DNA of 48,438 bases from a virus, in IMG/VR virus record IMGVR_UViG_3300025530_000003. The stretch is one strand, 5' to 3'. Positions 48,020 to 48,262 of this stretch are shown here, in pieces. The notes below the pieces were generated by a model. It searched no databases, was not told where the DNA came from, and saw only the letters and a list, made by a program, of their open reading frames with translations. The translations under genes were made by a program, and so were the position numbers. Each line of letters begins with the position of its first letter. The first letter of the stretch is position 1.

Positions 48020-48262
48020 GTGCAAGGCAAAACGGTGTTGCTGCTTGGTACGCTTTATGCGATACTTCTCCGCATACAACCCGCCGCCCCGTGCCTACCG
48101 TCGCTAACTAGTGCGGTTTATAGTCCGCAGGGACTTGCTGGCTTAATGATAACGGCATTCCCAGCCACTTATACCGGACGGTATTTACGCAGGTATCCGC
48201 CTCCTGCACGTGTGACGACAGCCCACACGCTAGCGCACGACAATTGTTTTACTTAACTTATT
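48020..48262 (-). ncRNA. Candidate structured RNA or long structured 5' leader between the early promoter and the first early gene
   Basis: A GC-rich island in AT-rich noncoding DNA with at least six local hairpins (for example 48056-61/48071-76, 48123-27/48175-79, 48137-41/48161-65, 48189-93/48203-07 and 48209-14/48224-29). The ORF there has no RBS and does not look coding. Confidence 0.3.

Follow-up and report, generated by a model that had tools for sequence, protein, structure and literature searches.

A conserved leader RNA with a predicted pseudoknot at the head of a phage early operon

The window analysed here is the whole stretch of DNA in IMG/VR record IMGVR_UViG_3300025530_000003, i.e., a complete phage genome of about 48.4 kb (48,438 nt) with 41.5% G+C. 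The ends of the genome overlap by approximately 15 nt, and the leader region described below thus adjoins the terminase genes across the junction, an arrangement that is confirmed by a contig of the same phage, L143. The plus strand carries the genes for the small terminase (587–1030), the large terminase (1307–2854), the structural proteins, including a P22-like portal, and an endolysin with Amidase_2 and SLH domains (21383–22084). The minus strand carries a one-way block of about 26 kb with early and replication genes, encoding PolA, a primase-helicase, an SNF2 helicase and a PD-(D/E)XK nuclease among others. The first early gene, gene 1, encodes 90 amino acids and has its start codon at 47976–47978 (minus strand), preceded by a ribosome-binding site, AAGGAGG, at 47987–47993. 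Terminator-like hairpins are found within the block; the first, at 44881–44905 on the minus strand (GGGCUAUC-UUG-GAUAGCCC followed by UUUU), is located about 3.4 kb downstream of the leader and is kept in the related contig L142, further ones are located at about 35350 and at 31749–31771, and a long-stem bidirectional terminator at 22341–22371 marks the end of the operon. The proteins scanned in the genome included no recognisable RNA polymerase, sigma factor, integrase or known antiterminator protein, and ARAGORN reported no tRNA or tmRNA. Among sequenced phages, SV21 and API480, two podoviruses of Paenibacillus larvae, are nearest, with a large terminase that is just 37% identical. Together with the SLH-amidase endolysin, the relationship to API480 suggests a host in Paenibacillus or in another member of the Bacillales that bears an S-layer. 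The whole genome had no nucleotide match in a reference phage collection by blastn or megablast. A second G+C-rich island, at 38006–38454, lies over small ORFs and overlapping genes, looks coding and was set aside.

The early promoters are of the sigma-A type and are arranged as three in tandem. The proximal promoter is located at 48305–48333 on the minus strand (TTGACA-17-TACAAT, 11 of 12 matches to the consensus) and is present in all relatives; transcription from it is inferred to start near 48298. It is part of a repeat unit of about 84 nt, of which a second copy is located at 48389–48417 (minus strand, TTGACA-17-TAAAGT) and a third, at 50–78 (minus strand), spans the genome-end junction. 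All three tandem copies are visible in L143, and the number of units in relatives ranges from one to three or more. Judged by position and strand, a leader of about 320 nt would be the first part that the host polymerase transcribes from these promoters. It consists of a 5′ module with a purine run, an A+U-rich linker and a G+C-rich core. The purine run, AAAGGGAGGG, is located at 48280–48289 (minus strand), about 10–20 nt from the inferred 5′ end, and resembles a Shine-Dalgarno (SD) sequence; no ATG, GTG or TTG follows it within the approximately 15 nt at which initiation would take place. A GGAG or GGAGG motif is kept in the run in all ten leader variants that were recovered (e.g., GAGAGGGGGAGA and GGAGGGAGGAGA). 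The linker between the 5′ module and the core, GAUAAGUAAAUAAGUUAAGUAAAACA (48245–48271, minus strand), has small indels among relatives, and the core is flanked by A+U-rich linkers on both sides.

Start-less SD-like purine runs have precedents as 5′ stabilisers of mRNA in Bacillus and in phage SP82. The run at 48280–48289 is a candidate stabiliser of the STAB-SD or SP82 polypurine type, as it shares with these a strong SD-like sequence, complementary to the 3′ end of 16S rRNA, in the 5′ untranslated region, the lack of a start codon and a location near the 5′ end of an early transcript. Such a model differs from what is found here in that it covers 48280–48289 alone and leaves the 216-nt core unexplained.

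The core comprises about 216 nt (48029–48244, minus strand; columns 66–283 of alignment A2), begins approximately 55 nt past the inferred transcription start and has a G+C content of about 53%. The somewhat larger segment 48020–48262, in which a preliminary description made from the sequence had proposed a hairpin-dense, novel structured RNA, has 52.7% G+C and thereby belongs to the top 1.4% of all 243-nt windows of the genome. The G+C richness, the near-consensus promoter upstream and the first early gene at 47978 were all confirmed as described, and the start-less SD-like run was found to exist, with its position about 5 nt away from the 48285–48294 originally given. The only long ORF in the segment (48020–48256, plus strand, 78 codons), which is antisense to the leader, had been dismissed as a gene, and this agrees with what is observed in homologues: single-base indels and stop codons interrupt it in L151, L152, L156 and L157, and its start codon is missing in three of the ten. 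On the sense strand no reading frame is kept among homologues, and the ORFs of the region gave no Pfam or PHROG match. The core is therefore non-coding. It contains an 8-nt palindrome, CGCUAGCG, in its 5′ part. A terminator scan gave no hit between 48300 and 47978; the last helix of the core (H9, below), followed by a short run of three to four U residues at 48029–48032, is a weak terminator candidate at best.

The claim that the segment is hairpin-dense beyond chance did not hold. The minimum free energy predicted for 48000–48300, −87.1 kcal/mol, is the same as that of dinucleotide shuffles (−87.2 kcal/mol, z = 0.03), and z-scores for the core ranged from −0.74 to +0.36 across all ten homologues. 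A folding energy no better than shuffled controls was among the results that the preliminary description itself had listed as speaking against a structured RNA. Its statement that the segment fits no riboswitch or ribozyme consensus was upheld. In Rfam 15 no family matched anywhere in the genome at gathering thresholds, and with E-values up to 10 only two chance-level matches of 15–16 bits appeared. Motifs resembling those of cobalamin riboswitches and T-boxes were weighed by eye and rejected, as the motif order does not fit and Rfam is silent on them.

By sequence search the element was found only in IMG/VR contigs of near-identical phages. Further homologues were reached through the gene 1 protein, which led to seven clusters in a large protein collection and from there to their contigs. 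In total, ten distinct versions of the leader were recovered from metagenome contigs of related phages. All come from one narrow clade with a small terminase that is about 98% identical. The core is 88–97% identical among versions while the adjacent gene 1 drops to 61–68% nucleotide identity, and the core is under strong purifying selection. The context differs in L155, L156 and L157. Their cores are 89.8–91.7% identical to that of the reference genome, their gene 1 is 62–68% identical in nucleotides and its protein 56–58% identical, and a gene for 117–118 amino acids is inserted between the core and the gene 1 homologue, with the distance from core to promoter about unchanged. The inserted 118-amino-acid gene of the L155 clade occurs elsewhere in unrelated contexts without the leader. 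Because the gene downstream changes while the distance to the promoter holds, and because the inserted gene occurs elsewhere without the leader, the core belongs to the promoter and not to a gene. The spacer between the core and the gene that follows is likewise not conserved among clades. The reverse situation is found in L144 and L151, where gene 1 is 100% identical and the cores are only 93.5–95.8% identical to that of the reference genome.

Outside this clade the element was not detected. It is absent from large-terminase relatives (L004–L023) and small-terminase relatives (L170–L177) as judged by blastn, nhmmer or covariance model R1, which represents the 3′ domain of the core only; R1 had no match in L004–L023 or in API480, and it identified a single copy in the reference genome (140.8 bits). 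In L171, with a small terminase that is 55% identical, the same divergent layout is found with a short, plain and unstructured leader. Five motif scans of IMG/VR returned the same contigs along with chance matches only (e.g., L141, L158–L161, L180 and L181), a scan of JGI metagenome contigs returned only L167, identical to L153, and a scan of 185,579 species genomes with one hairpin motif gave two chance matches only. The leader also had no match by blastn in 72,556 plasmids, nor in reference phages by blastn or megablast.

The alignment of the ten homologues is informative with respect to structure in spite of the folding energies. The core has 41 variable columns, and 20 of these are found in 10 pairs that change on both sides; the 10 pairs are spread over six helices, one of which is stem 2 of a pseudoknot. 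In a model of 51 base pairs, 99.4% of cells are paired, and the 10 pairs that change on both sides account for 28 cells. None of 500 shuffles reached this, and models slid out of register gave zero or one such pair. As the helices of the model were chosen partly from covariation itself, a separate unbiased scan was made, in which all possible helices of at least 4 bp were compared to 200 column shuffles that preserve relatedness. The scan identified three helices with at least two covarying pairs relative to a shuffle mean of 0.09, and 16 covarying pairs relative to 6.5 ± 2.7, with 0 of 200 shuffles reaching either value; both numbers derive from ten sequences of one narrow clade. G-U wobbles make up about one-tenth of the paired cells, and they are found only when the minus strand is read, as the other strand would give A-C. 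The folded strand is therefore the strand that is transcribed together with the early genes. Covariation among homologues was the check on which the preliminary description had staked its proposal of a novel structured RNA made from the early promoter, and the proposal passed it. Judged from the sequence alignment, the segment is a conserved and folded non-coding RNA that represents a new, narrowly distributed family. A family that is supported by covariation and absent from Rfam is new even without a known function, although its kind, the structured leader of a phage early operon, is already known. The case also shows that z-scores of minimum free energy can miss real pseudoknotted RNAs.

The core is predicted to fold into at least nine helices, including an H-type pseudoknot and long-range helices; all positions below refer to the minus strand. 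At the 5′ side, hairpin H2 (48208–48230) pairs GCGUGUGG (48223–48230) with UCACACGU (48208–48215) and is invariant except for one loop base. It is followed by the pseudoknot (48177–48207), in which the loop of a hairpin pairs with a downstream strand. Stem 1 (GCAGG 48203–48207 with CCUGC 48189–48193) has two covarying pairs with all four combinations seen, and stem 2 (GGCGG of the loop, 48197–48201, with CCGUC 48177–48181) has three, with GGUGG/CCACC, AGUGG/CCACU and GAUGG/CCAUC found as variants. Both stems are thus supported, five of the 10 pairs change on both sides, every cell is paired with zero mismatches, and the third loop is A-rich. Further downstream an extended hairpin (48137–48165) is made up of H5 (GCUGG 48161–48165 with CCAGC 48137–48141) and H6 (AAUG 48156–48159 with CAUU 48145–48148), with one covarying pair each. 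An alternative helix, CGGUAU 48171–48176 with AUGCCG 48153–48158, is 100% paired and has one covarying pair, in L153; it excludes H6, and the two share covarying column 153. This helix would either form a second pseudoknot with H5 or be one side of a switch between two folds.

The 3′ half of the core is organised by H7, a long-range helix between GUCCC 48130–48134 and GGGGC 48086–48090 with one covarying pair and one one-sided change. In L151 all 5 bp can form only when the register is moved by one position, as read off the alignment. H7 encloses hairpin H8 (UGCGG 48125–48129 with CCGCA 48112–48116). The 3′ domain (48031–48085), which is followed by the U run, consists of H9, where GGCGGGUUG (48077–48085) pairs with CAACACCGUU (48031–48040) with one bulge and two covarying pairs, and H10, enclosed by H9 (AUGCG 48071–48075 with CGCAU 48057–48061); its inner fold is ambiguous. 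H2, H8 and H10, whose pairs are invariant among the ten homologues, are putative helices. A candidate long-range helix may join GUGCGCU (48232–48238) to AGCGUAC (48048–48054). It has no two-sided covariation, and AGCGUAC is the sole tested partner of 48232–48238 that tolerates the G-to-A change in L157 (G-U to A-U).

The fold that had been drawn by eye turned out partly right, with covariation preferring long-range and pseudoknotted pairings. Two local hairpins of that drawing do not hold up in homologues: GUCC/GGAC is mismatched in four of ten and is replaced by H7, and AUACCG/CGGUAU has non-pairs at two of six positions, in three and seven of the ten homologues, respectively. The remaining local hairpins agree with the alignment. 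The closing helix that had been suggested between 48111–48115 and 48234–48238 did not survive, as it has zero covariation, is broken in L157 and competes with H8. RNAalifold also proposed helices 69–78/216–225 and 132–137/145–150, which have no two-sided changes and conflict with covarying helices.

Our best guess is that the leader controls either early transcription or how long early mRNA survives. As a whole, the explanation that we tentatively prefer is a cis-acting, antiterminator-like core combined with a 5′ stabiliser. The folded core would act in cis, on the very transcription complex from which it emerges, after the models of HK022 put, Bacillus EAR, pLS20 conAn2 and Tn916 canT. With its help the host polymerase would pass the terminator-like hairpins near 44.9, 35.4 and 31.8 kb. 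A 30S subunit bound to the 5′ purine run would shield the transcript from 5′-to-3′ decay, as in elements of the STAB-SD or SP82 type. Taken alone, the mechanism of an RNA-based processive antiterminator or elongation modifier acting in cis is a possibility about which there is considerable doubt, and it is nevertheless ranked above all others considered. It is suggested by the location of the core right after the early promoters, where it would head a long one-way operon with terminator-like hairpins, and by the lack of an RNA polymerase, sigma factor or known antiterminator protein among the proteins scanned. Action in cis and linkage to the promoter are in agreement with the context in L155–L157, with a single copy in the genome and with the absence of a canonical terminator after the core. 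On the other hand, the mechanism is argued from position and analogy, and the core resembles neither put nor EAR nor any Rfam family in sequence or structure. Because L171 has a short leader and L004–L023 have no match to the covariance model, an antiterminator would not be a general need of this phage group. The U tracts of the hairpins within the operon are short, and these hairpins may terminate weakly. Genes further down could be expressed from internal promoters that escaped recognition, and the predicted folding energy, which is no better than that of shuffles, also speaks against it.

Ranked second, and on the whole unlikely, is a role in mRNA stability or processing. Here the core and the SD-like element would stand in the way of 5′-to-3′ degradation by RNase J1 or keep RNase Y from entering, or the long 3′ hairpin would be a processing site, giving a long-lived early mRNA. 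The start-less SD-like run near the 5′ end is of a stabiliser type known from Bacillus and SP82, the compact pseudoknots in the core are of the general kind that stalls exonucleases, and the A+U-rich linkers on both flanks as well as the long irregular hairpin that RNAalifold and RNAfold draw at 48031–48085 fit such a function. The order of tandem strong promoters and a long leader is also that of phage T7, in which promoters A1–A3 are followed by R0.3, an RNase III site with a probable role in processing. A roadblock to nucleases would, however, require a stable structure and not loops and junctions that are conserved at about 90% over 216 nt, the core starts about 55 nt inside the 5′ end, its predicted stability is not above that of shuffled controls, and there is no uninterrupted duplex of about 20 bp for RNase III. 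If the core is instead cut out of the leader it may act in trans, soaking up a host protein or a defence system as a decoy or sponge, or serving as a specificity or immunity RNA like the CI RNA of P4, which arises by processing of an operon leader and controls that same operon. With three tandem near-consensus promoters in front of it the core would be part of the earliest transcript, which is probably also the most abundant one, its presence does not depend on the gene that follows, its A+U-rich flanks could be cleavage sites, and its restriction to one clade is typical of accessory counter-defence functions. The pseudoknot region, furthermore, differs between the phages with identical gene 1 (L144 and L151), which could mean diversifying specificity. 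Against this, neither a terminator nor a defined 3′ end was found between 48300 and 47978, the proteins scanned include no recognised integrase, and the covarying partners are within the same molecule, in ordinary nested or H-type helices; action in trans is regarded as rather improbable and ranks third.

The multi-helix, pseudoknotted architecture in a 5′ untranslated region with highly conserved junctions also brings to mind a new riboswitch-like sensor, in which binding of a host metabolite or ion to a pseudoknotted aptamer would determine how far the polymerase reads through the 3′ hairpin and U run at 48029–48085. The two mutually exclusive helices that covary via column 153 suggest a conformational switch, and H9 is followed by UUUU. 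This reading is placed fourth and given little credence: no Rfam riboswitch matched even at the most permissive E-value, riboswitch classes are normally widespread in bacteria and the hairpin motif found no copy among the species genomes scanned, and the gene that would be controlled is not constant. The downstream gene varies by clade with a spacer that is not conserved, and the U run is only 3–4 nt long, with H9 stacking directly on H7 within the core so that no separate expression platform is left. Finally, the segment may not be a functional RNA at all but a coding remnant, a DNA-level site (an origin, a pac site or a protein-binding site) or a G+C-rich relic of close kinship. The folding energy that equals shuffles, the narrow clade from which the homologues come and the palindrome in the 5′ part of the core speak for this view. 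It is considered highly improbable and ranks last, as no reading frame escapes interruption by single-base indels and stop codons, conservation is far above that of neighbouring genes, and compensatory changes with strand-specific G-U intermediates exceed what is seen in controls that preserve relatedness.

Cutting across these readings, it is conceivable, although we would not count on it, that the core founds a new class of RNAs able to reprogram or exploit host machinery by themselves, be it as an RNA-only antiterminator on a Gram-positive polymerase, as a ligand-dependent or conformational switch, or as a neutraliser of a host factor or defence. Four RNA-based processive antiterminators came up in the literature consulted, put, EAR, conAn2 and canT, and all four are from sources other than Gram-positive phages. 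At about 216 nt, the compact pseudoknotted RNA that heads the early operon of this virulent-type phage is a concrete and cheap target for experiments. Should elongation, mRNA survival or a host factor prove to be under its control, it would add to the known RNA folds and give Bacillales a portable genetic part.

Comparison with known systems shows partial likeness in each case. The put RNAs make RNA polymerase resistant to terminators via the beta-prime zinc-binding domain. The putL and putR sites of HK022 are like the present leader in being nascent structured RNAs just downstream of early promoters and at the head of a long early operon that contains terminators, and the distance of about 55 nt from the inferred transcription start places the core in a corresponding position. 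They are about 70 nt long with two stem-loops, and act as RNA only, in cis on the host polymerase and with no phage protein (PMC9378689). The core differs in size and complexity, with about 216 nt, at least nine helices and one or more pseudoknots, and it has no sequence similarity to put; moreover, the host here is Gram-positive and antitermination is a proposal. RNA antiterminators as a group are heterogeneous and some are large and complex (PMC9378689; PMC11658703; PMC10325885). For example, canT is a complex RNA of 341–452 nt (PMC11658703), conAn2 is located at the start of conjugation operons (PMC10325885), and canT, conAn2 and EAR let the polymerase read through many terminators (PMC11658703; PMC10325885). 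canT and conAn2 resemble the leader in being large cis-acting RNAs from the same broad host group that are placed close to where a very long operon of a mobile element begins, whereas EAR is placed inside the eps operon. No homology of the leader to conAn2, canT or EAR was found via Rfam or by blastn of the 72,556 plasmids. conAn2 furthermore works with a partner protein, ConAn1, while the first proteins encoded after the present leader had no tblastn match in the 72,556 plasmids.

Phage T7 offers a different parallel. Its early leader has tandem promoters A1–A3, then the RNase III site R0.3 and then gene 0.3, and both phages thus have three tandem strong host-type promoters near a genome end and, between these and the first early gene, a long structured non-coding leader. 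In T7 the signal consists of one irregular hairpin recognised by RNase III, whereas the leader described here is multi-domain and pseudoknotted with no long duplex. The closest sequenced relative is P. larvae phage API480. Although no homology to the core was detected in it with the covariance model of the 3′ domain or with blastn, API480 has the same layout, with an annotated promoter at 44900–44928 and, ahead of its first early gene, a non-coding leader of about 220 nt that contains a long hairpin.

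The closest sequenced relative, the Paenibacillus larvae podovirus API480, resembles the phage studied here in that it also carries a non-coding leader, of approximately 220 nt, that separates the first gene from an annotated early promoter (L178 3178–3400, corresponding to 44677–44899 of the API480 record). In the API480 leader there is a long hairpin, CAGAAAAG...CUUUUCUG, as well as a string, GAUAGGCACAG, that is similar to GGUAGGCACAG of the leader RNA in L153-type variants. The covariance model, which was built on the 3′ domain of the conserved core only, gave no match to it. 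In the L155 clade of related phages the leader is followed by a gene of 116–118 aa, which is also found as a 73% identical copy at 4001–4351 of L162, a 148-kb contig, where its neighbours are genes for DUF7007, DUF3560, and DUF932 proteins. This large contig resembles a conjugative element or a plasmid, and the leader is absent there.

The early promoter itself lies inside a tandemly repeated unit of about 84 nt, present in three copies that span the junction of the window (48305–48438 and 1–120), the two ends of which overlap by about 15 nt. Otherwise near-identical relatives carry anything from a single copy of this unit to three or more, and the -10 element of the upstream promoter copies, TAAAGT, is weaker. 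Direct repeats, GGGATCC..TGTCAGCGATTGGATCC (150–250), are found in the interval that separates the small terminase gene from the divergent early promoters; their number also differs between relatives (L080, L143, and L152), and they could serve either as a pac site or as an array to which a regulator binds. Further on, still 5′ of the small terminase gene, a G-rich tract on the plus strand, GCCGGGCGGGCGGGGACGCC (400–460), stands in non-coding, otherwise A+T-rich DNA and is kept in both L144 and L152.

Within the early operon, non-coding stretches at 46200–46640 and 45740–45810 are dense in CTACAA/TTGTAG, a motif also present in the promoter repeat units; these motifs could be binding sites for a phage regulator or a middle promoter class. 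Palindromic G+C-rich hairpins at 44881–44905, 31749–31771, and 22341–22371 could act as bidirectional terminators, the last of them having a stem of 12–13 bp and being located where minus-strand and plus-strand gene blocks converge.

In close relatives the large terminase genes contain intein/Hint domains (L144 1–1065, L152 1–1467, and L155 1–854), with products of up to 833 aa, and in L144 an HNH/NUMOD homing-endonuclease gene adjoins the terminase gene. The large terminase of the window (515 aa) has no intein/Hint domain. Other proteins encoded in the window include a Mom-family (DNA modification) protein (25739–26416) and an early protein (42965–43513) that matches the Cas_VVA1548 domain weakly.
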